Positions 2,935 to 25,642 are shown, numbered from the stretch's first letter. The stretch: 32,000 nucleotides of DNA from Candidatus Scalindua sp. (GCA_031316235.1 JALDRA010000001.1:2940001-2972000); one strand, 5' to 3'. Notes: generated from the sequence alone by a model not told the origin. Made by a program: numbers and translations.

Positions 2935-2937
2935 CGG

Positions 2938-3041
2938 TACTCATCTTATAATGGTTTTCGAATAAAATCCGAGAAAAAAATGAGCGAATACCCCAGCAAC
3001 CAGGCTTTGGTTTTCAGAAAAACCAAATCGGTTTTAGTATA
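2938..3041 (-). mobile_element. MITE-like repeat, copy A (104 bp, short variant, degenerate outer end)
   Basis: TACTCATCTTATAATGGTTTTCGAATAAAATCCGAG...AAACCAAATCGGTTTTAGTATA aligns with the six other copies. It starts 3 nt after the TPR gene stop codon. Confidence 0.8.
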
Positions 3042-3100
3042 GTTATGGTTCAACAGTTCGAAAGTTGGATCTCATATTTGTTGTGGAAACGGATTTGAAA

Positions 3101-4444
3101 ATGGAAAATGAATTAAGGAAAGGGGAAGAACTCTTTACGGAGGGCAGAATTGATGATGCTGAAGACCAATTCCTTTCAATTGTGAAAAGAGATAACAACA
3201 GTAAGGAGGCGTATAATAACCTCGGGGTTATCGCTTTTCAGAAGAACGATATCAAGAGAGCGATAGAGTATTTTACCCGCTCTTTGGAGATAGATTATTC
3301 ATACAAAGATGCGGTAATTAATTATACCGATTTACTTGGATCTCTCAATCAATCTCAGATAGCCATACCACTTTTGGAGAAAATTGTAGAGGATAACCCT
3401 CGTGACAATGAAATGAGAAGGCTTTTGGAGGAAATCAGCCCTCAAAAACACCCACAGGCAAAAATGGTTGTCTTATGCCTTCCCGGACTGGAATCATTCC
3501 TGGATGAGCTCGTCAATTTTCTTGGAAAACAATATGAGGTGAAGAGCTGTTACAGCCACGATCAACACGAGATTGAATCTGCCGTTCAATGGGCAGACAT
3601 AGTCTGGCTGGAATGGGCAAATGAACTCTCCATCAATCTAACCAATCATGCAGCGTTGTTAGAAAGGAAACACGTAATCTGCCGTTTACATAGTTATGAG
3701 GCATTTGTTCCTTTCGCTCAACAGATCAGGTGGGAGAAGGTAAATGATTTACTATTTGTTGCAGAACACATTAAGCATATTGTTCTTCAGCAGGTTCCAG
3801 ATCTTCCTGAGAAGGTGAAGAATATTCATATTGTTCCCAACGGAATCGATTTGAATAAATTTCCCCTTAAAGAGAGACCGAGGGGGAAAAATCTTGCATT
3901 CCTGGGCCATATTAATTTCAAGAAGGGTCCCATGCTTCTTTTACACGCATTCAGAGAATTGGCTCAAACTGACGGTGAATATCGTTTATGTATTGCGGGA
4001 GAATTCCAGGAAATAAGGTACCGGCTTTACTTTAACCAGATGATAGAAGAGATGGGGCTGGAAGAGAAAGTCCGGTTCGACGGATGGGTAGAGGATGTAA
4101 ATACCTGGTTTGAAGATAAAGACTATATTGTTTGTACCAGCGTACTCGAGGGACATCCGGTTGGCGTGATGGAGGCGATGGCATGCGGTCTCAAACCGCT
4201 CATCCACAATTATGTGGGTGCTCGGGGAAGCTACCCTGATCAATATATCTGGAACACAATTCCTGAATTTATCGAAATGGTTACCGATGGGAATTATGAT
4301 TCTCTGGAATATAGAAAATTTATTGAAACAAATTACAGCCTTGAGATGCAGTTGGAGAAAGTAGACAGAATCATTTCAGATGGATGCAAAGAAAAGCGGG
4401 GAAAACCTCAATCTGTCAGGAATCGAATCATCGAAACAGATTGA
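3101..4444 (+). CDS. TPR domain fused to a family-1 (GT4-type) glycosyltransferase
   Basis: N-terminal TPR units (EAYNNLGVIAFQKNDIKRAIEYFTRSLEID) are followed by a C-terminal GT-B domain with the E-x7-E region EGHPVGVMEAMACGLKPLIHNY. The start is uncertain: ATG at 3101 or TTG at 3065. Confidence 0.8.
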   Translation: MENELRKGEELFTEGRIDDAEDQFLSIVKRDNNSKEAYNNLGVIAFQKNDIKRAIEYFTRSLEIDYSYKDAVINYTDLLGSLNQSQIAIPLLEKIVEDNPRDNEMRRLLEEISPQKHPQAKMVVLCLPGLESFLDELVNFLGKQYEVKSCYSHDQHEIESAVQWADIVWLEWANELSINLTNHAALLERKHVICRLHSYEAFVPFAQQIRWEKVNDLLFVAEHIKHIVLQQVPDLPEKVKNIHIVPNGIDLNKFPLKERPRGKNLAFLGHINFKKGPMLLLHAFRELAQTDGEYRLCIAGEFQEIRYRLYFNQMIEEMGLEEKVRFDGWVEDVNTWFEDKDYIVCTSVLEGHPVGVMEAMACGLKPLIHNYVGARGSYPDQYIWNTIPEFIEMVTDGNYDSLEYRKFIETNYSLEMQLEKVDRIISDGCKEKRGKPQSVRNRIIETD

Positions 4445-4500
4445 TTTCTCCTTATAAAGAAAACAGGGAATTATCATCCCCGGGAATATCAGGAAATAGT

Positions 4501-5637
4501 ATGCTTTACATAAACAACTACCATATGGACATCTTGACCAGAAATGTCCCCTGTCCTGTCCGGTTAAACATTGAACTCACAACACATTGTAATCTGAAAT
4601 GTGTTATGTGCAGGGGGAGGCAGAATTATGTGGAAGAAAAAGAAGCGGGAAGGCATTTGACCACAGATGAATTTGTTCGTATCCTCAATGGTACAGATTT
4701 AAACAGGCTGAGAATTTTAAACCTGGCAGGTTCTGCTGAACCTTTATTAAATCCTGATATTTTTTCGATTCTGGATGTATGCAGAAAAAAGAAGCTCATC
4801 GTTGAATTTATAACGAATGGTATGCTTCTGACGCCTCAGATCTCAAAACAGATAGCAGGGTTTTCAAGCGGGATTCACATAAGTTTTGGAGGTTCAAAGA
4901 AGGAAACGTTTGAATCCATTCGTAACGGTTCAGACTTTGAACTTGTCTGCGAAAACATACGGACCATTGGCAGGATCAAGAAGGAGTGTAATCAACGTTA
5001 TCCTCTCGTCTGGCTAAATCCAATACTTATGAAAAGGAACATTCACGAACTGCCCGGAATAATTGAACTGGCGAAGGAACTGGGCTGTCAGGGAGTCTCC
5101 TGTTCACATCTGACCGTAAACAGTCCGGAATTGATCGAGGAAAGTCTCTTTTTTCATAAAGAAACAGGTAATCATTTTCTTCATGAGGCCTCGGAACTGG
5201 CCCGGAGATACAAAATTGCCATAATCAGACCTGAAAGCTTTTCACTTGAACCCGATTGTAATGAAAAGAGAAATAAGACAGAGGCATGGAAAAAGTGCAG
5301 GTTCTTATGGAACCATGCAATAGTGGGTTTAAGGGGAATCGAACCTTGTTCATCTAATAAGGTGATAGATTTTGATGGTGACGTCATTAGAAACAAATTC
5401 ACGGATATCTGGAATAATGATTGGTATGCCGATATGCGATACCGGTTGCTTACCGGTACCCCACCTCAATATTGCAAAAACTGTACAGACCCGTCCGTAA
5501 AGGATCCGGATCATATCAGCTCATATTTTAAGGAAGAGATACTTTCTGATGCATTTGATTATGTCAGAAAAAATCCGAAACTGTCTCAAAAAAATCAATT
5601 GGAAAAGAGTGGAGTTCCTGTTCTATCAAGCAATTAG
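4501..5637 (+). CDS. Radical SAM enzyme with C-terminal Cys-rich (SPASM/twitch-like) region
   Basis: The CxxxCxxC cluster is in LTTHCNLKCVMCRG. C-terminal cysteines occur in CRFLWNHAIVGLRGIEPCS and YCKNCTD. ATG at 4501 avoids the overlap with the upstream gene that the 4384 track start implies. Confidence 0.8.
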   Translation: MLYINNYHMDILTRNVPCPVRLNIELTTHCNLKCVMCRGRQNYVEEKEAGRHLTTDEFVRILNGTDLNRLRILNLAGSAEPLLNPDIFSILDVCRKKKLIVEFITNGMLLTPQISKQIAGFSSGIHISFGGSKKETFESIRNGSDFELVCENIRTIGRIKKECNQRYPLVWLNPILMKRNIHELPGIIELAKELGCQGVSCSHLTVNSPELIEESLFFHKETGNHFLHEASELARRYKIAIIRPESFSLEPDCNEKRNKTEAWKKCRFLWNHAIVGLRGIEPCSSNKVIDFDGDVIRNKFTDIWNNDWYADMRYRLLTGTPPQYCKNCTDPSVKDPDHISSYFKEEILSDAFDYVRKNPKLSQKNQLEKSGVPVLSSN

Positions 5638-5657
5638 CATAAAAAGGGTGGTGACTA

Positions 5658-6509
5658 ATGAATAAGGGAAGGGTGTTGATAATCGTTCCGTCATTCCGTG
5701 AAGAAAAAAATATATTTCACGTTATTTCGGGGCTAAGGGTGCATGTGCCCCATCTTGATATTTTAATCATTGATGATGGTTCAAAAGACAGAACCCAGGA
5801 GATCGCGGCGGATAATGGAGTTAAAGTTTTAAAGCACCCCTTCAATATGGGGTATGGCGTTGCGGTACAGACAGGGTATAAATATGCGGTAAAGCATGAT
5901 TATGATATAGTAGTTCAAATTGATGGTGATGGTCAGCATGATCCGAAATTTATCACTCCGCTGATCAGGACGTTGCAGCAAAGCAGAGCGGATGTTGTTA
6001 TCGGTTCCCGATTCTTAAAAGGGGGCGGATATGATGCCCCATTCATAAGAAAAGCGGGTATCAAATTTTTTTCTAAGATTGCGAGTGTTATCACAAAGCA
6101 GAAATTTACCGATTCGACATCCGGACAACAGGCCTTGAGCAGGAGAGTTTTCACCTACTTTTCCGAGCTGGACAATTTTCCCTACGATTATCCCGATGCA
6201 GATACGATTATAACCTTGTGTTTTGCCGGATTTAAGATCAAGGAAATCCCTGTCCACATGCATGACAGGATGAAGGGGAAGTCAATGATCTCGGGTATCA
6301 GGGTCATTATTTATGTCATACAGATGCTGATATCCATATTCATCATTCTCATCAGAAAGAGGAAGATAGCCAATGGCTATATACAAAGCAGCATAAACAC
6401 AAGACCGGAAGTGAAAAAGAGTGTTACAAAACTTAAGATTAAACATAAAATTAAACCAAAGATTAAGTCGAAACACAGGCTGCTGCATCCTCGTGTCTCT
6501 CTCAATTAA
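5658..6509 (+). CDS. Family-2 glycosyltransferase (polyprenyl-phosphate sugar transferase, DPM1/GtrB-like) with Lys-rich tail
   Basis: Motifs: VLIIVPSFREEKNI, ILIIDDGSKDRT, QIDGDGQHDP, one C-terminal TM helix, and the tail KLKIKHKIKPKIKSKH. An SD sequence AGGGTGGTG lies upstream. Confidence 0.85.
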   Translation: MNKGRVLIIVPSFREEKNIFHVISGLRVHVPHLDILIIDDGSKDRTQEIAADNGVKVLKHPFNMGYGVAVQTGYKYAVKHDYDIVVQIDGDGQHDPKFITPLIRTLQQSRADVVIGSRFLKGGGYDAPFIRKAGIKFFSKIASVITKQKFTDSTSGQQALSRRVFTYFSELDNFPYDYPDADTIITLCFAGFKIKEIPVHMHDRMKGKSMISGIRVIIYVIQMLISIFIILIRKRKIANGYIQSSINTRPEVKKSVTKLKIKHKIKPKIKSKHRLLHPRVSLN

Positions 6510-6581
6510 GGGACGGATCAGAAATAAGCCTCTATTATATTCCGTCTGATGATCCGCCGGTACCCGATTGCAAATTCTAAT

Positions 6582-6953
6582 ATGGCTACCAATTATATTT
6601 TTATACAGACAATTTCAGTATTAACCTTTATGTATATCATTCGGCTTATATACACGCACAAACTGAGGATTGGTAATTCGTGGTTTCTGTTTCTCCTGGG
6701 AATGGGTTTTCTTGTATTGACAGTTTTTCCGAAAACCATAAACATCCTTGGTTACATGACAGGTTCGACTTCCTGGTTGAGCAATATACTGTTTTTTCTG
6801 ATCATGTTTTTATTTATCATAATCGTCCACTGCACTCTCATGATAAAAGGACTGATCAGTCGGGTGAAAGAACTGGGGCAGCAGTTAGCACTCCTGAACT
6901 CTGAAATTGACGAGAAAAATTCATTACATAATCGAGAAACTCAATCCGCTTGA
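6582..6953 (+). CDS. Small membrane protein, DUF2304-like (usual partner of this GT2 type)
   Basis: Three or four TM helices, then an amphipathic tail VKELGQQLALLNSEI. Its position directly after the GT2 matches the GT2-DUF2304 pairing I recall. The start is either 6582 or 6549. Confidence 0.6.
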   Translation: MATNYIFIQTISVLTFMYIIRLIYTHKLRIGNSWFLFLLGMGFLVLTVFPKTINILGYMTGSTSWLSNILFFLIMFLFIIIVHCTLMIKGLISRVKELGQQLALLNSEIDEKNSLHNRETQSA

Positions 6954-7009
6954 TCTGCCAGTTTCACTATACTGTTTGTATTCATTTCAATTGGCACTTG
7001 ATTGAGCCG

Positions 7010-8008
7010 TCAACTGAAGCTCCATCTCAGCATTTCATATACGTCTCTAAGGTTTTTTCCTGTCTCCAAAACAACGGTAGGTTCAAATCCGCAATGTACC
7101 ATACAATTACGACAGCGGGGGTCTTTTCCGCTTTCGAATTTGTCCCAGTCTGTGGTGTCCATAAATTCCCTGAAAGTGCTGAAATGGGATTCTGTGATCA
7201 TATAGCAGGGGCTTTTCCAGCCGTGATAGTTTCTCGTTGGATTACCCCATGGAGTGCACATCAGATCTCTTTCGCCTTTAAGAAATTTTAAGTAGAGGGG
7301 GGTGTTCAGAATCTTGTATTTTTTTGATAGTTCATAGATAAAACTGAATTTTCGATAGAATTCCTCTTTTTGAATAAAGATATCGTTTGTATTATCCTCA
7401 AAACTGAAACCTGGTGATACGAGTATTCCATCGATATGCATTGTTGTGAGAAGTTTAAATAACTCCTCTATTTCCCGTGGATCGGAATCTTTGTAGATTG
7501 TCGTGTTTGTGCACACGTTAAAGCCCGATTGCTTGGCTTTCTTTATAGCATCAGTTGCCTTTTGAAAAACACCTTTTGCTCCGACAATACGGTCATGAGT
7601 TTCTGAAAGTCCATCCAGATGGACGTTAATGTTCAGTCGTGAATCAGGATGGAATTTCCTGAGGGAATCGGCAAGGGTGATTCCGTTTGTGCAGAGATAA
7701 ATGTGCCGTTTTTTTGAGAGAACTCCCTGTACGATCTTATCAATATCGGGGTGCAGGAGCGGTTCTCCACCCGTAATCGTAATAACGGGTGAACGGCACT
7801 CCTCTACTACGGACATGCAATCCTCAAAACTCATCATTCTATCCATAGTATCTTTAAATTCCCTTATTCTACCGCAACCTTCACATGCAAGGTTGCATTT
7901 ATGGGTAATCTCAAGCATCAGCACAAGCGGAAAACGCTTGACAAATGAGAATTTGTTTTTGATGAGATATTTTACAAGAGAATAGGTTAATTTTAATGAA
8001 CCTCTCAT
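7010..8008 (-). CDS. hpnH: Adenosylhopane synthase, hopanoid-associated radical SAM protein HpnH
   Basis: N-terminus KRFPLVLMLEITHKCNLACEGCGRIREF, then ITGGEPLLHPDI and HIYLCTNG. The C-terminal domain CTPWGNPTRNYHGWKSPCYMI...DPRCRNCMVHCGFEP is typical of HpnH. Confidence 0.9.
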   Translation of the reverse strand: MRGSLKLTYSLVKYLIKNKFSFVKRFPLVLMLEITHKCNLACEGCGRIREFKDTMDRMMSFEDCMSVVEECRSPVITITGGEPLLHPDIDKIVQGVLSKKRHIYLCTNGITLADSLRKFHPDSRLNINVHLDGLSETHDRIVGAKGVFQKATDAIKKAKQSGFNVCTNTTIYKDSDPREIEELFKLLTTMHIDGILVSPGFSFEDNTNDIFIQKEEFYRKFSFIYELSKKYKILNTPLYLKFLKGERDLMCTPWGNPTRNYHGWKSPCYMITESHFSTFREFMDTTDWDKFESGKDPRCRNCMVHCGFEPTVVLETGKNLRDVYEMLRWSFS

Positions 8009-8081
8009 TTTTATGTTAGAGCCTGCGATAGCCTGCCCAAATGTGTCGAGCGGGGGTATGAGCTAAATTCTATGAAATAAT

Positions 8082-8110
8082 TTGACATAAATATAGAGTT
8101 ATGATAGATT
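8082..8110 (+). promoter_or_regulatory. Candidate sigma70 promoter for hpnG
   Basis: TTGACA (8082-8087), 17-nt spacer, TAGATT (8105-8110), preceded by TGa (extended -10). It lies about 90 nt upstream of the hpnG ATG. Confidence 0.3.
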
Positions 8111-8200
8111 TCCGAATTCAAAGAGTATTGGTTGTAAAAAGTTCAAAAACTTCTATAGTATAGAATAGTTGTCAACTGTCAAGGGAAAAGAGGGGAAGGA

Positions 8201-8989: not shown

Positions 8990-9243
8990 AAGAGTAGCGG
9001 AACAAGGTGAGCTGAAAGAGAGAAGTGTAAAAAGAAAATTGAACGGTTTACAAAGGAATATCCTTTTTTCAACAACCTGAATAATTCCTTACCTGGCCGG
9101 ATGCAGCGAGTTGCTCTGTCAGAGTGTACACATAAAGAGATTATTTTTTTAACAGTATCGTTAGAAAAACCAGAAAACTCTAGCGATTACCTGCCTGAAA
9201 AAACCTGGGTGGGAAAAGGACTATATTTTTAAAGGAGATTTTT

Positions 9244-10290
9244 GTGCCATTACCGACTATAGAATGGATTGGTGGAATCGATGGAAAGATAAAGATCATA
9301 GATCAGACACTGTTGCCTAAAGAATTGAAGTACAGTTACTGCTGCGATTTAAAAGATATTTATCATGCAATTAAGACCTTAATGGTCAGGGGCGCACCCG
9401 CAATAGGAATTGCAGCTGCAATGGGAACGGTATTGGGGATTGGAAAGAGTAATTCAGGGAATTTTGAAGATTTCATGAAGGATTTGAAAGAGACCACGGC
9501 CTACCTGGGTTCTTCTCGGCCGACAGCGGTAAATTTGTTCTGGGGTTTAAAGAGGATGGAAGATACCGCCTTGAGGAACCGCCATAAGCCGGTTGCAGAT
9601 ATAAAAAATGCATTACTTGATGAGGCAAAAACTATTCTTGAAGAAGATAAGGAGATTTGTCGCAGGATCGGAGAAAATGGGGAGGCACTCATAAAAGATG
9701 GAGGCAATGTTCTTACTCATTGCAATGCAGGAGGGCTGGCTACCTCTTATTTTGGTACCGCATTAGCTTTGATCTTTGCCGCTCATGAAAAGGGTAAATC
9801 TGTCCATGTCTATGCGGATGAGACACGGCCTCTTCTCCAGGGCTCCCGGCTCACGGCATGGGAACTCAAGAATGCGGGCATTGATGTTACCTTGATATGT
9901 GATAATATGGCTGCTCATACAATGAAAGAAAAAAAGGTTGATTGTGTCATTGTCGGTGCGGACAGAATTACCGCGAATGGTGATGCTGCCAATAAGATCG
10001 GCACCTACAGCCTTTCAATCATTGCGAAGGAACATGGCATCCCTTTTTACGTTGCCGCACCCTCTTCGACCTTTGATTTGAGCCTGGCATCAGGTGCTGA
10101 AATTCCAATTGAGGAGAGAAGTTCTGAAGAAGTGACTCATATTCAAGGCAAGAGGATAGCCCCTGAAGGTATAAAAGTGTTTAATCCTGCCTTTGATGTT
10201 ACTCCTGCCGGGAATATAAAGGCCATTATAACGGAAAAAGGTGTGATCAATGACCCCACGACGGAAAAGGTTAAAAGAACAATTCAGTAA
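9244..10290 (+). CDS. mtnA: S-methyl-5-thioribose-1-phosphate isomerase (eIF-2B-like family)
   Basis: GTG start 6 nt after AAGGAG. Motifs: IIDQTLLPKE, MVRGAPAIGIAAA, SRPTAVNLFW, THCNAG, ADETRPLLQG, VGADRITANGDAANKIGTY, AFDVTP. Confidence 0.9.
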   Translation: MPLPTIEWIGGIDGKIKIIDQTLLPKELKYSYCCDLKDIYHAIKTLMVRGAPAIGIAAAMGTVLGIGKSNSGNFEDFMKDLKETTAYLGSSRPTAVNLFWGLKRMEDTALRNRHKPVADIKNALLDEAKTILEEDKEICRRIGENGEALIKDGGNVLTHCNAGGLATSYFGTALALIFAAHEKGKSVHVYADETRPLLQGSRLTAWELKNAGIDVTLICDNMAAHTMKEKKVDCVIVGADRITANGDAANKIGTYSLSIIAKEHGIPFYVAAPSSTFDLSLASGAEIPIEERSSEEVTHIQGKRIAPEGIKVFNPAFDVTPAGNIKAIITEKGVINDPTTEKVKRTIQ

Positions 10291-10303
10291 GTTTGAAGTT
10301 AAT

Positions 10304-10415
10304 TATACTAAAACCGATTTGGTTTTCGGTAAAACCTGAAACCAAATCTTGGTGAAGGTATACTCGCTCAATTTTATCTCGGATTTTATCCGAAAACCAA
10401 TATGAGATGAGTATA
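10304..10415 (+). mobile_element. MITE-like repeat, copy B (112 bp, short variant)
   Basis: TATACTAAAACCGATTTGGTTTTCGG...CCGAAAACCAATATGAGATGAGTATA. It starts 13 nt after the mtnA stop codon. Confidence 0.85.
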
Positions 10416-10460
10416 AAAAAGTGACCGGGATTTTAAACAACTAAATAAGGAGAACATCTT

Positions 10461-10802: not shown

Positions 10803-11053
10803 TTTGTCATTTCTCAGCCAAGCTGCGAACTGGCGTTTGGGGAAAGTACGGCAATTCTGACTGAAAGGGCTGGATAACACAGGTTCTTGACTGCTGCCTG
10901 CTTCAGGCAGCATAAGGCTGATCGCCGTTCTGGATGCCAACTTTAAGCCGAAAGCCTTAAACCCTGTCGCATCGCGTAGAGAGTAATTTCCTGGAATTCT
11001 TCAAACGTTATTCTTCTATCGATTTTGTAAAACATAAGGAAGACGATTTCTCC

Positions 11054-11620
11054 ATGATACTCATAATAGATAACTATGACTCCTTTACCTATAATCTTGT
11101 GCAGCAAATTGGAGCACTTGGTGCTGATATTGAAGTCGTGAGAAACGATAAAATTACGATTCCTGAGATACAAAAGAGAGATTTGAGCCATATCATTATC
11201 TCTCCCGGACCGTGTACGCCGAAAGAGGGTGGGATATCCAATGATGTTATCAGGACTTTTGCGGGCAGGATTCCAATCCTGGGTGTCTGTCTGGGGCATC
11301 AATGCATTGCGTATACCTACGGAGCAGAGGTCATCAGGGCAAAAAGGATAATGCACGGTAAGACATCTTTGATATACCATAATAACACAGCTGTTTTCAA
11401 GGGTTTGATGAATCCCTTCGAAGCGACCCGCTATCACTCCCTGATTGTGAATAAGGAGACATTGCCCGATTGTTTCGAAATTACCGCATATGCGGACAAA
11501 GATGAAATTATGGGCATAAGGCATAAAGAGATCCCGTTGGAAGGCGTGCAATTCCATCCTGAATCTTTCTTGACGGTTGAGGGTACAAAGTTAATGCAGA
11601 ACTTTCTTGATTACAACTAG
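11054..11620 (+). CDS. trpG: Glutamine amidotransferase subunit of anthranilate/aminodeoxychorismate synthase
   Basis: [25 protein letters not shown], the triad context ILGVCLGHQ, and GVQFHPES. I cannot separate TrpG from PabA by eye. Confidence 0.9.
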
Positions 11621-11742
11621 TGGCGGAACCAACTACCCATCTCCCGCGTTGCTGCAGCAATTCCGTAATCCTCACGTACTTGAGCGCGCTCTGGTTCCGG
11701 AATCGTTACGCGCCTTTAATCTGGGCAGTTGGTTCCGCCACT
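11619..11742. repeat. GC-rich 124-nt nested inverted repeat (orphan MITE or structured RNA)
   Basis: The 21-nt arms AGTGGCGGAACCAACTACCCA and TGGGCAGTTGGTTCCGCCACT pair at 20 of 21 positions. They enclose 82 nt containing the inner pairings CGCGT/ACGCG and ATTCCG/CGGAAT and the palindromes TGCTGCAGCA and GAGCGCGCTC. The trpG stop codon lies in the left arm. Confidence 0.5.
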
Positions 11743-11816
11743 GAATGAGTGCACAGCCTTGAAATTTTTGATTCACTTTTAGTTCGTTGTTCTGCAAATA
11801 GTCGCAAATTATTAAG

Positions 11817-13951: not shown

Positions 13952-15034
13952 TTGAGAAAGATGATTTTGTTGAATCCTGGTCCTGTATGTACCTCTGAAA
14001 GAGTAAGAAAGGCACTGTTACGCGGTGATATGTGCCATCGGGAAAAGGAGTTTTCGAAGATCTTGAAAGGAGTACGCAAAAAAATTATCCAGGCCTTCGC
14101 ACCAGATGGTGATTACACAACAGCAGTCATTACAGGTTCTGGTACCGCGTCTTTGGAGGCGGGAGTATGTTCTTCGGTAAGTGAGGGGAAAAAACTCCTG
14201 GTTGTAGACAATGGGGTTTATGGTGACAGGATAGCCCGCATTGCATCTGCACATAAAATTGATAAGGTTGTGCTGAAATATGATTGGTTTAAACTGCCGG
14301 ACATTGCAGAGATAGAAGAGACGGTATCGAAGGATAAAGATATTGAGGTGATTGCCATGGTACACCATGAGACTACGACAGGTTTGTTAAATCCTGTCCA
14401 TAGTATTGGTGAAATAGCAAAAAAATATAAAAGGTCCTTTCTCGTTGATTCTATAAGCGGTCTTGGTGGTGAAAAGATTGATCTGGTCAATGATAACGTG
14501 GATATTTGTATTGGTTCGGCAAATAAATGTATTCAGGGCCTGCCCGGATTATCATTTGTTCTGCTGAAGAAATCTGAACTAGACAGGCTCAGAAGTATTC
14601 CAGCACGATCTCTCTATTTTCATCTGGTTTCCCAAATTGATGATCAGGAGGAGAGGGGAGAATGTCCCTTCACACCTTCGGTACATACATTTTATGCCTT
14701 TGAAGAGGCTTTAGATGAACTACTGGAAGAGGGTGTTGCGAATCGGATAAAAAGGTATCAAAGGGCTTCGGGATTTCTCCGAAGAGAATTCAAGAATTTA
14801 CATTTAGAATTCCTCCTGCCTGTCAAACTTCGTTCTAATACCATCACTGCATTAAATTTACCCGATAGCATGACATATACCCTTCTGCATGATAGGTTAA
14901 AGGAAAGAGGCTTTGTTATCTATGCGGGGCAGGGGCAATTACATGCAAAAATATTCAGGATTGCAAACATGGGAGAACTGTCTATGCAAGATTTGGAAGA
15001 GTTTATCAGAAATTTTAAAGATATCATAAACTGA
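13952..15034 (+). CDS. phnW: 2-aminoethylphosphonate:pyruvate aminotransferase
   Basis: LLNPGPV, SANKCIQGLPGLSFVL, RLKERGFVIYAGQ and FRIANMGEL closely parallel enterobacterial PhnW as recalled (SSANKCIQGVPGFAFV, RLKEQGFVIYPGK, FRIGNIGEV). The TTG start at 13952 is 6 nt after GGGAG; an alternative ATG is at 13961. Confidence 0.85.
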   Translation: MRKMILLNPGPVCTSERVRKALLRGDMCHREKEFSKILKGVRKKIIQAFAPDGDYTTAVITGSGTASLEAGVCSSVSEGKKLLVVDNGVYGDRIARIASAHKIDKVVLKYDWFKLPDIAEIEETVSKDKDIEVIAMVHHETTTGLLNPVHSIGEIAKKYKRSFLVDSISGLGGEKIDLVNDNVDICIGSANKCIQGLPGLSFVLLKKSELDRLRSIPARSLYFHLVSQIDDQEERGECPFTPSVHTFYAFEEALDELLEEGVANRIKRYQRASGFLRREFKNLHLEFLLPVKLRSNTITALNLPDSMTYTLLHDRLKERGFVIYAGQGQLHAKIFRIANMGELSMQDLEEFIRNFKDIIN

Positions 15035-15082: not shown

Positions 15083-15194
15083 TATACTAAAATCGATTTG
15101 GTTTTTGGTTTTACCTGAAACCAAATCCTGGTGAAGGTATGCTCGCTCAACTTTATCCCGGATTTTATCCGAAAACCATTATGAGATGAGTATA
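15083..15194 (+). mobile_element. MITE-like repeat, copy C (112 bp, short variant)
   Basis: TATACTAAAATCGATTTGGTTTTTGG...CCGAAAACCATTATGAGATGAGTATA. It lies between phnW and the cytidylyltransferase gene. Confidence 0.85.
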
Positions 15195-17256: not shown

Positions 17257-17370
17257 AAAATTTAGTTAATGGTCGAACGGAAACTACCCATATACTGAGT
17301 TGTGGCAATAATTCTGAAATCATGAAATGCATGACGTTATGAAATCAGCGCTTCATCTATCCGGGCAGTT

Positions 17371-17398
17371 TTGGTTCAGTCACTCCCTGGTATATAAT
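17371..17398 (+). promoter_or_regulatory. Candidate sigma70 promoter for the MPGP-family phosphatase gene
   Basis: TTGGTT (17371-17376), 16-nt spacer, TATAAT (17393-17398). It lies about 75 nt upstream of ATG 17472. Confidence 0.3.
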
Positions 17399-17471
17399 AT
17401 TTATTTGTTCTTGTTCCTCAGAAACAGGATGATTTTCTTGGGAGTAGTTGGTAAAATTGCTGATTTAGGCT

Positions 17472-18296: not shown

Positions 18297-18323
18297 TTTA
18301 ATGGGAATCAGGGAGGAAGTGAA

Positions 18324-18691
18324 ATGGGAGATTTTCACCAGTCAGGCGAAGTTACAACTCTGCACAGATTTGGAAACTCAGGCCTTAATAAGCTGAGTTC
18401 CGCAGTAAAAAAACTCTCACGCTTAAGGCCGGTAGCCCCTGTATACTCATCTCATACTGGTTTTCGGATAAAATCCGAGATAAAATTGAGCGAGTAAAGT
18501 CCTCGGCGCCTGGTCAGGGGATACCTTCACCAGGATTTGGTATACTCCCAACGATCTTTTCTGGATTGGAAAGTTCCGCGTTACCGAAAATCCTGGATGA
18601 ATTAAAGGAGGTTAAATACCTCAATCAAATGATAGTTACCCTGGGTGGATTTAATAAAGAGCAATTTAAGTATGCAAAGAAATTTGCATAA
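18324..18691 (+). pseudogene. gpgS: Relic of glucosyl-3-phosphoglycerate synthase (N-terminal ~90 codons only), split by a MITE
   Basis: A GGGAGG SD and ATG are followed by MGDFHQSGEVTTLHRFG...SRLRPVAP. Then comes MITE copy D. The sequence resumes in a different frame as LPTIFSGLESSALPKILDELKEVKYLNQMIVTLGGFNKEQFKYAKKFA, then TAA. Both pieces match the GpgS N-terminus as recalled; the remaining roughly 300 codons are absent. Confidence 0.55.
18442..18545 (-). mobile_element. MITE-like repeat, copy D (104 bp, long-variant core, inner hairpin end deleted)
   Basis: TATACTCATCTCATACTGGTTTTCGGATAAAATCCGAGATAAAATTGAGCGAGTAAAGTCCTCGGCG...CCAGGATTTGGTATAC. It lies inside the gpgS relic. Confidence 0.8.
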
Positions 18692-18696
18692 ATTTT

Positions 18697-20034
18697 ATGA
18701 AAATGGATATCCTTACGCTGAGAAAACATGCAGAAGAAATTTTCAGGCATGTATTATGTACCCTGGATCCTGAGCAGTTGGTGAAGAAAAGGCTGTTTAT
18801 GCATGATTCTACACTTTCGGTAGGGCAGAAGGAATACAACCTCGATGAGTATGAACATATCTATGTCATAGGAGGGGGGAAAGCGTGTGCACCAATGGCG
18901 AAAGCAATAGAAGATATTCTGGGAGACAGGCTCGATGGTGGAATCGTTATTGTGAAATATGGCCATGGTTTACTGCTCAGGAAGATCAAAATTGTTGAGG
19001 CTTCACATCCCCTTCCGGATATGAATGGGATGGAGGGAACCACTGAGATACTCAAACTGCTATCAAGAACCGGGGAGAAAGACCTGATACTCTGTCTTAT
19101 TTCCGGTGGAGGTTCAGCCCTGCTTGTTCAGCCACATGCTGAAACAACTCTGGAAGACATACAAACCACGTCAAATGAACTGCTTGCCTGTGGAGCTAAG
19201 ATTGACGAAATTAATGCGGTGAGAAAACATGTATCAATGATCAAGGGGGGGCAACTGGCAAAAGCTGTATTTCCTTCGAGGCTTGTTACATTGATGCTGT
19301 CAGATGTTGTGGGAGATCCAATGGATATTATTGCATCAGGTCCTACTGTGCCTGATGAAAGTACTTTTGAAGATGCTTACAGGGTAATTCAAAAATATGC
19401 ATTAGAAAACAAGATACCGGATAGCGTCAGTGATCTCTTAAGGAGAGGAAGAATTGGACAAGTACCGGAAAATCCAAAACGGGGAGATGTGGTATTTGAC
19501 AATACGCAAAATGAGATTATCGGATCTAACAAAATAGCCTTAGAAGCTGCGAAAGATAAAGCCGCTGATTTGGGATATAATACCATAATTCTCTCCTCTC
19601 TGGTACAGGGAGAAAGTAGAGAGGTAGCAAAATTTTTTGCTGCCATTGCTAAGGAAGTTGGCCGAACTCAGTCACCGATAGGAAAACCTGCATGCATCAT
19701 TGCTGGCGGTGAAACAACGGTAACGATACGGGGAGATGGTAAAGGGGGGAGAAATCAGGAGTATGCTCTTTCCGCTGCCCTCGAGATTGAAGGTGAACAG
19801 GATATTGTGATTCTCAGTGGAGGGACCGATGGAACAGACGGCCCAACGGACGCTGCGGGTGCGATCGTTGATGTTTATACGTGTTGTGATGCGAGATCCA
19901 AATTCAACTTGAGCCCGGAAGACTATCTGCAGAGGAACGACTCATACAATTTTTTTCATCAGCTTGGGCAACTCCTCATTACGGGTCCCACTCTTACAAA
20001 TGTGATGGATCTTACGATCTCCCTGATAATATGA
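18697..20034 (+). CDS. Glycerate 2-kinase / hydroxypyruvate reductase-like (MOFRL family)
   Basis: Motifs: VIGGGKA, LISGGGSALL, IAGGETTV, GKGGRNQE, SGGTDGTDGPTDAAGA. Confidence 0.85.
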   Translation: MKMDILTLRKHAEEIFRHVLCTLDPEQLVKKRLFMHDSTLSVGQKEYNLDEYEHIYVIGGGKACAPMAKAIEDILGDRLDGGIVIVKYGHGLLLRKIKIVEASHPLPDMNGMEGTTEILKLLSRTGEKDLILCLISGGGSALLVQPHAETTLEDIQTTSNELLACGAKIDEINAVRKHVSMIKGGQLAKAVFPSRLVTLMLSDVVGDPMDIIASGPTVPDESTFEDAYRVIQKYALENKIPDSVSDLLRRGRIGQVPENPKRGDVVFDNTQNEIIGSNKIALEAAKDKAADLGYNTIILSSLVQGESREVAKFFAAIAKEVGRTQSPIGKPACIIAGGETTVTIRGDGKGGRNQEYALSAALEIEGEQDIVILSGGTDGTDGPTDAAGAIVDVYTCCDARSKFNLSPEDYLQRNDSYNFFHQLGQLLITGPTLTNVMDLTISLII

Positions 20035-20372
20035 ATTTCTTGATGCTATTATTCACTGCAATGCCGCATCCGTCCGAACGGTGCGGACGGACGGGAAGAG
20101 CACAAAAGAAGATTGAGGATGATGAAAATAGCGGCTGGTTGCCAAAAAAAAATCATGTGCTGCGATTGAGGTGTAATATCTTAAGTGGTATTACGTAAGA
20201 TGAGAGGTGACGTGTATCTTTATGAGAAAAGATACCGTGTGTGTGGAGATATAAATCTTTTCCTTCAGTTTATACGTTAAAATGTGGTATTAACTTGATA
20301 GAGTGAAGGATTTTTGAAATTTTGCGTTCTTTGCGGTGAACTGTTGCTTTTTGATAGAGTTTTGAGTTTTAG

Positions 20373-20422
20373 CCCACAGGGTTCAGAAAAAACAGTAAGT
20401 TATTTTTTCTGAACCCTGTGGG
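20373..20422. repeat. Perfect 20-bp inverted repeat with 10-nt loop
   Basis: CCCACAGGGTTCAGAAAAAA (20373-20392), then cagtaagtta, then TTTTTTCTGAACCCTGTGGG (20403-20422). It abuts the 5' edge of the GH15 relic. Confidence 0.6.
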
Positions 20423-20840
20423 ATTTAAGAAATTCAGAGATGCGGGAGAGCGGATAACACAAGAAAAATCTGCCAGGCAAACATACCATAATGACCTTGA
20501 GGCACAACTTGAAGCGCATTTCAAGATTATCAATGCCTGTTCAATAGAAACGGAAGACAAAGATAGAGTATTGTTAGCAGCCAGGCCTGAATCAAGATAT
20601 CCCTATTTTTATCCCCGCGATGCAGCGTGTGCATCAGAACTCCTTGCCCGTCTTTCTACTTCCTAATACGCATTTGCAGATGAAGCATTTAAACTCCTCA
20701 CCTCAGTTACAAAATTTGTTTTGAAGGCTATAAGGGGTGATGGGTTTGTTGGACAAAGATATGCACTTTCCGGCGAAGAAAAAAGTATTTACAAACAGGA
20801 AGACAATAATGCACATGGTATGATTATCCTTTCTCATTAG
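20418..20840 (+). pseudogene. Relic of a GH15-family glycoside hydrolase (internal fragment with in-frame TAA)
   Basis: VLLAARPESRYPYFYPRDAACASELLARL, then TAA (20664-20666). The same frame continues as FADEAFKLL...GDGFVGQRYALSGEEKSIYKQEDNNAHG, then TAG at 20838-20840. This is about 140 codons of an enzyme that is normally several hundred residues long. There is no credible start, since the GTG at 20418 lies inside the hairpin. Confidence 0.5.
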
Positions 20841-20866
20841 CACCTCTCATATGGTCGCACGTAGAA

Positions 20867-20978
20867 TATACTAAAACCGATTTGGTTTTCGGTTTTTCTG
20901 AAAACCAAATCTTGGTGAAGGTATACTCACTCCGTTTTTTCTCGGATTTTATCCGAAAACCATTATGAAATGAGTATA
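20867..20978 (+). mobile_element. MITE-like repeat, copy E (112 bp, short variant)
   Basis: TATACTAAAACCGATTTGGTTTTCGG...CCGAAAACCATTATGAAATGAGTATA. It starts 26 nt after the end of the GH15 relic. Confidence 0.85.
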
Positions 20979-21039
20979 TATGAAGGCTTTACCCTATAAA
21001 CATGGTCTTTATTTAAATGGGAATACAGAGAAGGGTTCA

Positions 21040-21079
21040 AACTGTTTTGTATAAGAATGCTTTCTTATACAAAACAGTT
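21040..21079. repeat. Perfect 18-bp inverted repeat with 4-nt loop
   Basis: AACTGTTTTGTATAAGAA (21040-21057), then tgct, then TTCTTATACAAAACAGTT (21062-21079). It lies about 87 nt downstream of the minus-strand polyprenyl synthase stop. No flanking U-tract is present on either strand. Confidence 0.55.
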
Positions 21080-21165
21080 AAATGCAGGTTAGAAGAGAAG
21101 TTTTTATGAATACATTTCAGTACGGAAATGCTGATTTCTGAAGGGTATAAAAAAGAGAGACGGTC

Positions 21166-22137
21166 TTATCTTTTTCTTTGTATTACGTAATCGCCTAATT
21201 CAAGAAGTGATGTCTTGAAAACTGATTCTGGTATGAAGGATATGTCATCCTGGGCTTTTTTGACCAATTGCCTCGCACTTTCGTAAGCATATTCCATAGC
21301 TTCATGCTCTTGTAATAAGTCAACAATAGCGGCCTTTGTAGTATTCCCATTGTTTTGGAAGATCAGTTCACAAACACTTTCTTTACGGTTTGCAGGCAAT
21401 ACATTTACCAGCCTGATTAAGGGAAGTGTTAATTTTCCCGTTTGGAGGTCAGTGTTTAATGTTTTCCCCACCTCTTCTTCCTTTCCCGTGACATCTAAAC
21501 AGTCGTCTATTATTTGAAATGCTACTCCTAATTTTAAACCGTAGTTTGCGAGTGCCTCCGAGAGTTTTTTGTTTGCACCAGAGAAAATTGCCCCCAATTT
21601 GCAACTTGCAGCGCATAAGGCTGCGGTCTTTCGTTCTATGATGTTTAAGTATTCCGATTCTGTTACATCGGGATTGTGACGTTTTAGAAGTTGAACAATT
21701 TCCCCCTCGCACAAGATATTTATGGTTTGGGATACGATTAAAGTTGCGATTTGGGAATCCAGGGACGAGAGGATCGTGTAGGCTCTTGAAAAAAGATAGT
21801 CGCCAAAGAGGATAGAAATCTCTCTGCCCCATTTTGCGTTAATAGTTTCCACGTGCCTTCTGACGACAGCTTCATCGATAATATCGTCATGGACCAGCGT
21901 TGCAGTATGGATGAGCTCTACAACTATTCCCAGGTCAATGTGTTGTCGCACGAACGTACCCGAACACTTGCCTGCAAGCAGTAACAATGCAGGGCGAAAC
22001 CTCTTCCCCTTAATCTTGCTGATATGAAGAACCAGATCCGCAAGATGTTTGTCCTGAGATGAGATGTCCTTATAAAGACGCTCCTCAGTCTCACGCATCT
22101 CTTCCTGTATAGGTGCTAAAATTGCATCAAGTCCCAT
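21166..22137 (-). CDS. ispB: Long-chain trans-polyprenyl diphosphate synthase (octaprenyl/heptaprenyl type)
   Basis: First aspartate-rich motif LVHDDIIDE, second IIDDCLD, plus GKRFRP. ATG at 22137 is 9 nt after AAGGAG; the track start at 22212 adds an implausible Cys-rich leader. Chain length is not determinable by eye. Confidence 0.85.
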   Translation of the reverse strand: MGLDAILAPIQEEMRETEERLYKDISSQDKHLADLVLHISKIKGKRFRPALLLLAGKCSGTFVRQHIDLGIVVELIHTATLVHDDIIDEAVVRRHVETINAKWGREISILFGDYLFSRAYTILSSLDSQIATLIVSQTINILCEGEIVQLLKRHNPDVTESEYLNIIERKTAALCAASCKLGAIFSGANKKLSEALANYGLKLGVAFQIIDDCLDVTGKEEEVGKTLNTDLQTGKLTLPLIRLVNVLPANRKESVCELIFQNNGNTTKAAIVDLLQEHEAMEYAYESARQLVKKAQDDISFIPESVFKTSLLELGDYVIQRKR

Positions 22138-22259
22138 AAAACAACAACTCCTTAGAAGATGATATATCTTTTGAAATGCATCATATGCGCAACATAGTAA
22201 CAAGAACCTCAAAAAATGTCAATTACGTTTTGTCTACTGAGGATCAATTTTAGATTTTC

Positions 22260-22967
<708 letters not shown>

Positions 22968-23042
22968 TTATATCTTGGAAATGCTTCAAATTACTGTTTT
23001 AAACGTAGTATCTCTAGATCCCGTTGTCCAATACATAGTATG

Positions 23043-23159
23043 TATACTAAAACCGATTTGGTTTTCGGTTTTAGTTATCCCCGGATAAAAAACGCCGAGG
23101 ACTTTACTCGCTCAAATTTATCTCGGATTTTGTCCGAAATCCAGTATGAGATGAGTATA
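23043..23159 (+). mobile_element. MITE-like repeat, copy F (117 bp, long-variant core, second hairpin arm deleted)
   Basis: TATACTAAAACCGATTTGGTTTTCGGTTTTAGTTATCCCCGGATAAAAAACGCCGAGGACTTTACTCGCTC...CAGTATGAGATGAGTATA. It lies upstream of bioD. Confidence 0.85.
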
Positions 23160-23265
23160 TTCAAGGTGTAAGCAGCATGCTGGCTGTGCCCTGGTTTGTG
23201 TTCAAGCCAGAAAGGAGTAGCCGGGCAGAATCCAAAAATGGTGTTAAGCAACCATATTTTGCACA

Positions 23266-23307
23266 AGTTCCACCTGCCTGTGTGCTGGCGCACAGACGGG
23301 TGGAACT
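23266..23307. terminator. Imperfect 17-18 bp hairpin, terminator-like
   Basis: AGTTCCACCTGCCTGTGTGC..GCACAGACGGGTGGAACT, followed on the + strand by CTTTATTCT. It lies 36 nt beyond the minus-strand DUF62 gene stop. The U-rich tail is better on the + strand than on the - strand. Confidence 0.35.
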
Positions 23308-23342
23308 CTTTATTCTATACTATTTGGATTGGTTCAATTTGT

Positions 23343-24158
23343 TTAGAGAAGATTGTCCTGTACACCTAATATCAGCTTGTCTCCCTTCTGTAGGGCTAAA
23401 ATATTTTCAGCATTTCCCTGATTTACAGATATCTCAAGGAATCCAGTACTTCCAATAATGGCTAATACTTCCTTCTCTTTTACGTCGGTATACGAAGTGC
23501 TAATTTTGTCTATTCTTTTTTCCCCAGCAATAATTGAGAGTTTCTGAGATTTTACTTGCATCCGGTTAATGATTTTGCTGGTAATGTTTGTAATAAGATT
23601 TCCAAAATGGTCCACATAAATGACTTCACCTGTCAAGGTACCACCAGGTGAACGGATCGGTTTTGGTAAATCAATTTTCCTTATCTTATCTATCTTTTCT
23701 CCTAACTTTTGATGATTAGTCCCTTTTGAAAGGTATGCGGCAACAGGTGCAAATATGTCACGACCATGGAAGGTGTTACTAGGTTCAGTTAAAAAAAACT
23801 CTTTATTTGTTACACTAGTAAAAGAGAAAGATTTTGTATCTGTCGTTACAAATGATAGAGCACCATTATCTGGAGCGAGAAAAAGGTAATCGTCTGTTTT
23901 CAGGCATAAGATCTTCCTTTCACTTCCCACTCCGGGATCAACGACAACGATATGAATTGTACCCTTCGGGAAGTATTTATAAGAACTGTTGAGGATATAA
24001 GCTGCTTGAAAGATATTTTGATTTTCTATCATGTTGCTGATATCAATTATGTTTGCTGATGGATTGATTCCGGTAATTATTCCCTTCATTACTCCAACAT
24101 ATCCATCTTGTAAACCAAAATCTGTAATAAGTGTTATTGTGGGTTGTAACTTTGACAT
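23343..24158 (-). CDS. S-adenosyl-L-methionine hydroxide adenosyltransferase (DUF62 SAM hydrolase family)
   Basis: ITLITDFGLQDGYVGVMKG, VVVDPGVGSERK, APDNG, FHGRDIFAP, VIYVDHFGNLITNI and LEISVNQGNA parallel archaeal DUF62 proteins as recalled. ATG at 24158 is preferred over TTG at 24215. Confidence 0.8.
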   Translation of the reverse strand: MSKLQPTITLITDFGLQDGYVGVMKGIITGINPSANIIDISNMIENQNIFQAAYILNSSYKYFPKGTIHIVVVDPGVGSERKILCLKTDDYLFLAPDNGALSFVTTDTKSFSFTSVTNKEFFLTEPSNTFHGRDIFAPVAAYLSKGTNHQKLGEKIDKIRKIDLPKPIRSPGGTLTGEVIYVDHFGNLITNITSKIINRMQVKSQKLSIIAGEKRIDKISTSYTDVKEKEVLAIIGSTGFLEISVNQGNAENILALQKGDKLILGVQDNLL

Positions 24159-24198
24159 ATGGATATGATTAGATTTATCAGCACCTAAATTAAAAAGG

Positions 24199-25323
24199 CT
24201 AGTTGAGATTCCCAATTATCGGAATTCTGAAACCACACTGTGGGCACATCAGGTTCTCTAAAAAAGAAGTTATCACTGAAAATCCTGCTCTTTCAATCAG
24301 CATCTTGCCACATTCATGGCAGTAGGTATTTTCCCACTTGTGGCCGGGGACATTTCCTGTATAAACATATTTAAGTCCTTCTTCCACTCCTATTTTTCTT
24401 GCCAGCTCAAGTGTTGATATAGGGGTTTGTGCTACCTGAGATAAACCAAGATATGGATAAAACTTACTCAAGTGCCATGGCGTCTCATCGCCTAGATGTC
24501 GAACTATCCAACGGGCGATTTCATGTAATTCTTCAGCATCATCATTGTACCCGGGCACAATGTTGGTAATAATCTCTACATGCATGTTCCATTTTGTTTT
24601 TGCTCTGATAGTAGCATCTAATATAGGTTTGACACTCTTGACATTTGCAACATCTTTATAAAAGCAATATCTTGCGTCCTGGAGTCTTGGACTTGTTTGC
24701 ATTTCGGTTTCTGACACATGGTGTGCTTTGCAGCCGTCGAATCCCTTTATATCAACTCGGTAGGCATCTAAAAAAGGTCCTATCGCATCCAAAGCATCTA
24801 GCTCTATATACCCATTTGTTACAAAAACCGTATAGAGGTCTTTGCTTTTTGCGAGTTTTGCGCTATCAATTGCATATTCAATCCAAATCGTAGGTTCATT
24901 GTATGTCCAAGAAATACCCTGGCAACGGTTTTCTAATGTCAGCTCTATTAATCTTTCCGGGGAGATGTATGTAGTGGATCGAGTACTGTTTTTTGCTGTA
25001 GAGTGAGCTATCTGCCAGTTTTGACAGTGACGGCAGCGCATATTACATCCCAGAGATCCTACAGAAAATGTGGAGCTACCCGGGTAAAAATGATATAGTG
25101 GTTTTTTTTCTATCGGATCTGCACCGGCTGACGAGATCTCTCCGTAAATAAGAGAATAAAGTTTTCCGTCGATATTTTGCCTAACTCCGCAGTAACCGAA
25201 CTCGTTATGAGAAATTACACATTTATGCGGACATAGGTCGCAAGAGACCTTTTTGCCACTTACAGAACGATAAAATAAGGCGTTATGTTTCATTTCTGTT
25301 TGTTTTGCAATTTCAGTTGTCAA
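24199..25323 (-). CDS. AmmeMemoRadiSam-system-type radical SAM enzyme
   Basis: CDLCPHKCVISHNEFGYCGVRQN, DPIEKKPLYHF, the CxxxCxxC cluster GCNMRCRHCQNW, and the C-terminal YCHECGKMLIER...CPQCG. The start is TTG at 25323 or, more typical in length, ATG at 25293. Confidence 0.8.
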   Translation of the reverse strand: MTTEIAKQTEMKHNALFYRSVSGKKVSCDLCPHKCVISHNEFGYCGVRQNIDGKLYSLIYGEISSAGADPIEKKPLYHFYPGSSTFSVGSLGCNMRCRHCQNWQIAHSTAKNSTRSTTYISPERLIELTLENRCQGISWTYNEPTIWIEYAIDSAKLAKSKDLYTVFVTNGYIELDALDAIGPFLDAYRVDIKGFDGCKAHHVSETEMQTSPRLQDARYCFYKDVANVKSVKPILDATIRAKTKWNMHVEIITNIVPGYNDDAEELHEIARWIVRHLGDETPWHLSKFYPYLGLSQVAQTPISTLELARKIGVEEGLKYVYTGNVPGHKWENTYCHECGKMLIERAGFSVITSFLENLMCPQCGFRIPIIGNLN

Positions 25324-25500
25324 CGGTACCTATCTGAAAAGACCTATTATGGAAAGAAATTCGAATTAGTTCATGTTGACTCGGAACTCTTGATTATAAA
25401 ACATAAAACATTTTACATCAACCCAAAAAGTGTAGTAGTAAGATTCCTTTATCAGAATTTCAGATGGAAACGCATGTGCCGAAGCATCACTTTTTCTTTT

Positions 25501-25642
25501 TATATACCCATCTCATACTGGATTTCGGATAAAATCCGAGATAAAATTGAGCGAGTACAAGTCCTCGGCGTTTTTTGTCCGGGGATACCTTCGCCAAGAT
25601 TTGGTTTCCGGTAAAACCGAAAACCAAATCGGTTTTAGTATA
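25501..25642 (-). mobile_element. MITE-like repeat, copy G (142 bp, the only copy containing all modules)
   Basis: TATACCCATCTCATACTGGATTTCGGATAAAATCCGAGATAAAATTGAGCGAGTACAAGTCCTCGGCGTTTTTTGTCCGGGGATACCTTCGCCAAGATTTGGTTTCCGGTAAAACCGAAAACCAAATCGGTTTTAGTATA. Confidence 0.85.

Follow-up and report, generated by a model that had tools for sequence, protein, structure and literature searches.

A TA-duplicating miniature inverted-repeat element of Scalinduaceae and its probable IS630-family partner

Seven repeat copies in a 32-kb window

The window analysed here is a 32-kb stretch (41% G+C) of a metagenome-assembled genome (MAG) of Candidatus Scalindua sp. It holds seven copies, 103–140 nt long, of the short repeat that is the subject of this report; the rest consists of ordinary housekeeping genes and an rRNA operon at 26.7–31.9 kb. 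We consider the repeat to be a MITE (miniature inverted-repeat transposable element) specific to Scalinduaceae, most likely mobilized in trans by a resident 1.12-kb insertion sequence (IS) of the IS630 family. An earlier description made from the DNA letters of the window, hereafter the sequence-only reading, had listed seven copies by position and strand. All seven align over their full length in the orientations given there, and a repeat finder recovers the same set; two boundaries had to be moved, as copy G spans 25503–25642 (the two further nucleotides listed being flank) and copy D ends at 18544. When the window was searched with an nhmmer profile built from the seven copies, exactly those seven were recovered (E between 1e-23 and 1e-35) and no further or degenerate copies were detected; the remaining significant matches there were reverse-strand self-matches of the palindromic hairpin 1.

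The complete long form is represented by copy G (25503–25642, minus strand, 140 nt, E = 7e-35), in which the parts follow in the order left terminus, hairpin 1, linker, M2 module, 3' palindromic unit with hairpin 3, and right terminus. Copies B (10304–10415, E = 9.8e-36), C (15083–15194, E = 1.4e-35) and E (20867–20978, E = 2.7e-34), all on the plus strand, are of the 112-nt basic form, copy B reading TA-[TACT...AGTA]-TA. Copy A (2936–3041, minus strand, E = 1.8e-27) is a short form of about 104 nt in which the hairpin-1 loop is shortened; its 5' TA is kept and its 3' TA has decayed (GAGTAcc). Copies D and F have internal losses. In copy D (18442–18544, minus strand, E = 3.5e-23), a long form with the 27-nt M2 module, hairpin 1 is internally deleted so that TATAC is joined to CAAATC; the tip is kept, and hence there is no 5' truncation. 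Copy F (23043–23159, plus strand, 117 nt, E = 7.1e-25) also has the M2 module, but its hairpin 1 is without the right arm and no linker is present.

The sequence-only reading had described matching tips, two internal hairpins and an imperfect terminal inverted repeat (TIR) of about 26 bp, and all of these are present: the tips are TATACT/AGTATA, the hairpins are GATTTGGTTTTCGG/CCGGAAACCAAATC and TCGGAT-TTT-ATCCGA, and the consensus ends agree at 18 of 26 positions, comprising the TATACT tips and TGGTTTTCGG at positions 17–26. The perfect match of TGGTTTTCGG at both ends, also claimed, is true of the family consensus and of copies B and E, while copies A, C, F and G have one or two substitutions in one arm.

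All seven copies are intergenic; the sequence-only reading had placed them in intergenic DNA or inside gene relics. Copy A starts 3 nt past the stop (2934) of a TPR gene and has a TPR/glycosyltransferase gene (3065–4444) on its other side; copy B starts 13 nt past the stop of an IF-2B/MtnA-family gene (9244–10290); and copy C starts 48 nt past the stop of a class-V aminotransferase gene (13952–15034), upstream of an NTP-transferase gene. The observation that three copies shortly follow stop codons is thus correct. The neighbours of copy D are a HAD hydrolase gene and a glycerate kinase gene, and copy E is located in a 1.1-kb gap between the convergent glycerate kinase (plus strand) and polyprenyl synthetase (minus strand) genes. 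Copy F lies between two minus-strand genes, one AAA_26/dethiobiotin-synthase-like and the other for a SAM hydroxide adenosyltransferase, and copy G lies upstream of a radical-SAM gene (24199–25323, minus strand). No transposase had been noticed in the window, and none was found: a Pfam scan assigned a transposase domain to none of the 30 window open reading frames (ORFs) scanned, and the best tblastn match of an intact IS630 transposase to the window had E = 0.14.

A dispersed family that duplicates TA on insertion

The family was sought in one genome per GTDB species using a 20-nt core, CGGATTTTRTYCGAAAWCCA, which gave at least 120 matching stretches. Profile searches identified true copies in at least 109 loci, coming from four MAGs: Scalindua sp. 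SCAELEC01, Scalindua sp. RBC_AMX3, a long-read Scalinduaceae assembly (genome C) and one Candidatus Anammoxibacter contig. Because only the repeat itself matches the window, these MAGs are distinct from the window genome, and the family is present in at least five Scalinduaceae genomes including that of the window. At least 151 non-overlapping copies (111 with both ends, unique flanks) were counted in the four MAGs. The 11 core-matching loci from unrelated taxa had no profile match, about nine chance matches being expected (estimated by hand), and no match to the element was found in viral contigs.

These data bear on the possibility that the seven copies are an artefact of assembly or of local duplication. 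Their high local density is the sole point for such an explanation, whose probability we regard as practically negligible, since the family occurs in five independent assemblies, long-read ones included, at non-orthologous sites with unique flanks. Furthermore, a short-read contig of the same organism (L127; 2,065 nt), which covers window positions ∼18486–20550, breaks inside copy D, as expected of a genuine repeat. The view taken in the sequence-only reading, that this is a MITE family and not a local artefact, is therefore upheld.

Copy lengths range from 57 to 227 nt, with modes at 112/113 and 139/140 nt, and none is long enough for a transposase gene. The fold of either strand consists of two palindromic units in tandem, TATACT...AGGTATA and TATACTC...GAGTATA. 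The 112/113-nt copies are the basic form; those of ∼139/140 nt add to it the 27-nt module TCCCCGGAC..CCGAGGACTT where the two units meet, as in window copies D, F and G; forms of 142–227 nt carry additional GC-rich cassettes; and mini-elements of 57 nt consist of the two termini alone. Length variants would have arisen by deletion between repeated AAACC arms and by insertion of cassettes at hairpin apices. Forty ‘partial’ matches in the loci were considered as candidate solo ends beside a transposase; all proved to be elements that are split by a cassette or carry an internal deletion, and none is an IS end. Overlap with an ORF of at least 100 aa, in most cases at its edge, was seen for only 10 of 122 copies, while 71% of the DNA is coding by the same proxy.

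Conservation is ∼97% inside TATACT...AGTATA and drops to background immediately outside. The flanks show an AT-rich, mirror-symmetric preference: of 121 copies, 72 have A at position −1, C does not occur at position −3, and the complementary pattern is seen downstream. Empty and filled sites could be compared in four independent cases, and in each the single TA of the empty site has become a TA on each side of the insert. The empty site CGCGCCTTG-TA-CCTGGGC is seen in many empty paralogues of a second, unrelated repeat family and is filled in loci L007 and L015; the same TA received a separate insertion by a different subtype in L080. The site GGGGKTAA-TA-AATTA belongs to a third repeat and is filled in L067. 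The last site, GCGAAA-TA-AACCCAATT, is orthologous between two species, being filled in SCAELEC01 (L053) and empty in RBC_AMX3 (L031). Insertion duplicates a single TA and, given this duplication at four sites, the element proper is TACT...AGTA, which encodes nothing and has a length of 110 nt as the basic form, or 138 nt when the 27-nt module is present. Small and non-coding, with TIRs, TA duplication and many dispersed copies at unrelated sites, the repeat is a MITE.

The second repeat family, ∼130–160 nt in length, is also interspersed and is represented in the window at 11617–11744 and 17264–17384, both on the plus strand; it had not been listed in the sequence-only reading. Its inverted ends resemble GTGTTTGAACGAAAACTACCCA / TGGGCAGTTTTGGTTCAAACAC, and 111 profile matches were obtained in the fetched loci, with many copies in SCAELEC01 (e.g. 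L119:4157–4313 and L103:1047–1204). On at least two independent occasions the MITE that is our subject has inserted at the internal TA of this family.

Conservation among the MITE copies extends beyond species boundaries. Majority-base frequency is 0.97 in the 26-nt termini, 0.98 in hairpin 3 and 0.90–0.93 in the interior. The nearest relatives in other species are 94–97% identical, as compared with ∼70–78% for host DNA in the few comparisons available, and in an alignment (A2) of window copies B, C, E and G with 59 copies from the four other MAGs, similarity between species is as high as similarity within genomes. Subfamily alleles are also common to several species: two versions of the linker, an AGA/TCT hairpin allele, and presence or absence of the 27-nt module. 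This cross-species similarity implies one of two things: master copies under strong constraint, or a recent horizontal exchange of the element between species.

A probable IS630-family partner

A search for end-like sequences away from the known copies showed that three SCAELEC01 contigs (the starts of L008, L056 and L120) have identical first 125 nt, ending ...CCTAAAACCATTTCGTAATGAGTA-TA, after which each continues into unique DNA. Such identical contig starts indicate an assembly break inside a multi-copy IS; only four segments of at least 400 nt are common to several loci. One IS with an intact 347-aa ORF, L139, has a right end to which this contig-end sequence is 93.5% identical. The reading frame that enters the contig end matches a decayed gene in genome C (L089), in which Pfam recognizes DDE_3 and HTH_33 domains and whose database relatives, in Brocadiaceae/Planctomycetota and in Scalindua japonica, are annotated as ‘IS630 family transposase’.

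The complete IS was seen in the contigs that encode those relatives and in 80 further loci from a metagenome scan. It measures 1,121–1,122 bp, and several copies have an uninterrupted 343-aa ORF. Against the NCBIfam IS630 equivalog NF033545, which has a cutoff of 100 bits, the protein reaches 221.7 bits, a score of 210.1 bits having also been obtained, and residues D173, D253 and E288 of the 343-aa transposase give the spacing D-80-D-35-E (DD35E). The left end of the IS is TATACTGGTCACGAAAAGAAATTAGAG and the right end CCTAAAACCATTTYGGAATGGGTATA, with the general patterns TATACYNGTC... and ...CCTAAAACCATTTYG..ATG.GTATA, respectively; TA flanks the IS on both sides in L124 and in 14 further copies. 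Two MITE-bearing MAGs contain the IS, namely SCAELEC01 (the three contig ends) and genome C (the decayed copy in L089).

A terminus of the form TA-TACYCAT...TGGTTTTMGG is common to MITE and IS. When compared with seven IS right ends, the MITE right end matches at 18–22 of 26 positions and the MITE left end at 16–19 of 26, whereas random 26-mers from these genomes match at 6.9 positions on average, with a 99.9th percentile of 15. Insertion at TA, matching termini and a bona fide IS630 DDE transposase in the putative partner are features expected of an IS630-dependent element. The sequence-only reading had suggested looking for an IS630/Tc1-like partner with TA duplication, and the empty and filled sites, together with the termini held in common with the IS630-family element, answer to that suggestion.

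From these comparisons we infer that this transposase probably mobilizes the MITE, and that the window genome probably still carries an active copy of the IS. Since the two MITE ends are both similar to the right end of the IS, the DD35E transposase is predicted to bind at either end; the element would then be excised by a cut-and-paste reaction and integrated at a TA in AT-rich intergenic DNA, with duplication of the TA. Copies landing in genes would subsequently be removed by selection, and any effects on neighbouring genes would be incidental.

Several observations weigh against this interpretation. Similarity between MITE and IS stops at the terminal 26 nt, so that the MITE did not arise simply by deletion from the IS but shares the IS right end at both tips; either MITE end matches the IS left ends at only 12–14 of 26 positions. 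No MITE was present in the 2-kb flanks of the intact metagenomic ISs fetched, so that the evidence for co-residence comes from the contig ends of SCAELEC01 and from the decayed gene of genome C. In the window genome, the 32-kb window holds no IS630 copy. The whole 112 nt is conserved across species (hairpin 3 at 0.98), beyond the obvious need of transposase binding, and the case for movement is one of sequence comparison. Finally, the nearest identity among the window copies (four compared) is 0.915, as against 0.972 among SCAELEC01 copies, and this lower identity suggests that the family may be inactive in the window genome.

The last point introduces a further explanation, in which the window copies are fossils of an extinct burst and the family, no longer mobilized in this genome, is neutral intergenic DNA. 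We regard this as plausible, though less likely than not. The four window copies compared are 86–91% identical to each other, three of the seven window copies have internal deletions, copy A is without one TA, and there is no IS within the window; on the other hand, the 32 kb examined are part of a genome of at least 4.15 Mb, and each window copy is 94–96% identical to copies from other species, far above the 70–78% of host DNA (few comparisons), which argues that the window copies are not ancient.

Ends like the IS right end are also found on a sister MITE, a TA-flanked, near-perfect palindrome of 182 nt whose ends match it at 21–25 of 26 positions. Copies of the sister element lie at L011:4156–4337, L069:5114–5295, L099:3077–3258 and L089:1638–1819, and there are none in the window. 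One of them interrupts the decayed IS630 transposase gene in L089, which recalls the insertion of RUP, the repeat unit of pneumococcus, into ISs.

Folding, inserted cassettes and comparable elements

The Scalindua MITE forms long stable hairpins on both strands (consensus folds of −37 to −45 kcal/mol), and this raises the possibility that the repeats are primarily functional RNA elements, whether stabilizing stem-loops in 3'-UTRs, terminators or small-RNA genes, with their transposon features being secondary. The full-length conservation between species, the three window copies that start 3–48 nt past stop codons, and a few compensatory changes (TACAC..GTGTA in L007 and L015; CGG/CCG versus AGA/TCT alleles) are consistent with such a role. 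Nevertheless, we consider it very unlikely, because the placement of the copies and their patterns of substitution are not those expected of it. In gaps between co-directional genes, 22 copies are in the sense and 33 in the antisense orientation (binomial p = 0.18), and co-directional, divergent and convergent gaps are filled in proportion to their total length (55/21/17). Over 122 copies, the median distance is 131 nt to the upstream stop and 95 nt to the next start. The proposal that the copies may serve as 3' stem-loops thus draws no support from stop and start distances, orientation or gap types.

Nor do the folds favour one strand. Predicted G-U pairs number 3.93 and 3.97 per copy on the two strands, and the mean strand energy difference is −0.9 ± 4.7 kcal/mol, in favour of the strand opposite to that proposed in the sequence-only reading. 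That reading had taken a G-U pair in copy G as a hint of selection at the RNA level; at the C.A/G.U position concerned, 24 of 25 copies agree in state, and such near-fixation indicates inheritance from a founder, i.e. descent. Covariation is weak: in the 63-sequence alignment, 92.1% of cells pair as compared with 91.7% after shuffling, and pairs changed on both sides number 5 where 2.9 would be expected, with 35 of 500 shuffles reaching that number. In this count the AGA/TCT allele is paired one column off register, so that its compensation is undercounted, but it reflects a single subfamily event in any case. No Rfam match (4227 families, E up to 1) overlaps any copy. Sequences resembling promoters or terminators are no more numerous in the window than in shuffled controls, and TATACT is reused as a −10 box only in weak 9/12 matches. 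Individual copies may affect their neighbours, but nothing indicates selection for such effects.

In the other genomes, 37 of 121 elements contain nested GC-rich, imperfectly palindromic cassettes of 27–85 nt with ends CCYGYC...GRCRGG; there are none in the window. Among insertions of at least 15 nt, 33 of 41 are at the hairpin-1 apex (GGTTTTA^C) and 4 of 41 at the hairpin-3 apex (GGATTTTA^TCCGA), both sites being just after TTTTA, and no duplication is visible at cassette insertions. Examples are L023:533–696, L107:7658–7823, L017:4190–4416 and, at the hairpin-3 site, L067:4659–4824. The dominant cassette type differs between genomes. Outside the MITE, cassettes occur almost only at the apex of another palindromic repeat (L036, ∼2968–2999; L008, 2966–2995; L045, 4029–4058). 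The cassettes may be REP-like micro-elements that target extruded hairpin loops. Their placement and the full-length conservation of the element raise the idea that the latter is a scaffold which forms a single-stranded cruciform in vivo and is the target of a second, apex-specific micro-mobile element (e.g. a REP-like one moved by a Y1 transposase), or that it has a structural role in the host; we think this unlikely, and neither role is needed to explain the window.

A different proposition is that the repeats themselves are REP/BIME-like or IS200/IS605-derived palindromes, moved as single-stranded DNA by a Y1 (RAYT/TnpA) transposase acting on subterminal hairpins. Both ends do have prominent subterminal hairpins, the copies are modular mosaics reminiscent of BIMEs, and the cassettes at the hairpin apices are REP-like and GC-rich. 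To our knowledge, Y1 elements leave their target unduplicated and enter on the 3' side of a tetra- or pentanucleotide that is fixed. In the Scalindua family, by contrast, four independent sites have a duplicated TA, flanks show a mirror-symmetric preference and no conserved asymmetric sequence, the termini match those of a DDE (IS630) element, and orientations in the window are mixed, all of which makes mobilization by a Y1 enzyme extremely unlikely. Mobilization by the IS630-family transposase remains the explanation that we favour.

Among systems already described, the closest is that of RUP and IS630-Spn1 in Streptococcus pneumoniae. With a length of 107 bp and 108 copies, all intergenic, RUP targets TA, carries IS630-like TIRs and is also found inserted in other ISs (PMC2229807); its mobilization by IS630-Spn1 was proposed by Oggioni and Claverys (1999; summarized in PMC2229807). 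RUP resembles the Scalindua MITE in length (∼107–112 nt), in being non-coding and intergenic, in its copy number of at least a hundred, in TA insertion and in having subtypes; for both, mobilization in trans is deduced from the likeness of the TIRs to those of a resident IS630-family IS. Insertion into other mobile elements is a further likeness, since the MITE studied here has entered two other repeat families and its sister the IS630 transposase gene. The Scalindua element differs in its Planctomycetota host, its two tandem palindromic units, its longer shared termini of 26 nt, its optional modules and loop cassettes, and in that both of its ends copy the IS right end.

RUP, the Correia/NEMIS elements of Neisseria and the ERIC/IRU elements of enterobacteria were compared with the Scalindua MITE by architecture (PMC2229807), not by sequence, and no homology is claimed. 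Correia/NEMIS elements have TA termini with TA duplication and TIRs of 24–26 bp, are abundant and intergenic, and would be transcribed into long hairpins. An internal segment distinguishes their long from their short form (∼107 and 155 bp, short and long respectively), as it does in the Scalindua MITE (112 and 140 nt). We know of no transposase partner for Correia elements, whereas the Scalindua MITE has a matching IS630-family IS. IHF-site, promoter and RNase III functions have been reported for Correia elements; in the Scalindua MITE, promoter-like matches do not exceed the shuffled expectation, as noted above. ERIC/IRU elements are likewise imperfect palindromes of ∼120 nt with TA termini, internal insertions at fixed positions and conservation across species, but their TIRs are short (7 bp) and their lineage is unrelated to Scalindua. 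In these families, RUP apart, similarity between TIRs and an IS was not found or not looked for, and as of a 2007 review RUP/IS630-Spn1 was the only MITE tied in this way to its transposase (PMC2229807). Finally, the Scalindua cassettes, as GC-rich imperfect palindromes of 27–33 nt that form mosaics and show no visible duplication, are like REP/BIME sequences; unlike these, the Scalindua backbone makes a TA duplication and has DDE-type termini, and the conserved 5' tetranucleotide of REPs is not evident in the cassettes.

The family does not appear to have been described before: no paper on a Scalindua MITE, or on any MITE of Planctomycetota, was found in the searchable literature, and anammox taxa go unmentioned in the main text of a 2024 survey of 183,232 genomes. 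With the negative Rfam search, this agrees with the failure of the sequence-only reading to recognize a named repeat family. IS630-family ISs have been reported in other anammox genomes (PMC7814187).

The class of element and its mechanism are already textbook matter, and no concept is changed. What the family offers is a clean tie between a bacterial MITE and a transposase, by target duplication and termini, in Planctomycetota, and a sign that IS630 activity has shaped the intergenic DNA of an uncultured, globally important lineage of the nitrogen cycle. As the breaks inside copy D and inside the partner IS (three SCAELEC01 contigs) show, the family is a practical reason for the fragmentation of short-read Scalindua assemblies. 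The profile lets annotators mask an abundant repeat, and the insertions provide dense polymorphism markers with which co-occurring Scalindua populations could be separated in oxygen-minimum-zone metagenomes.

One other palindrome in the window deserves mention. At 20373–20422, ∼450 nt upstream of copy E and between the convergent glycerate kinase and polyprenyl synthetase genes, lies a unique perfect palindrome with a 20-bp stem (CCCACAGGGTTCAGAAAAAA ... TTTTTTCTGAACCCTGTGGG), of which no further copies were found in the other fetched loci. Weak Rfam matches to mir-9261 on both strands correspond to this palindrome, which may be a bidirectional terminator.

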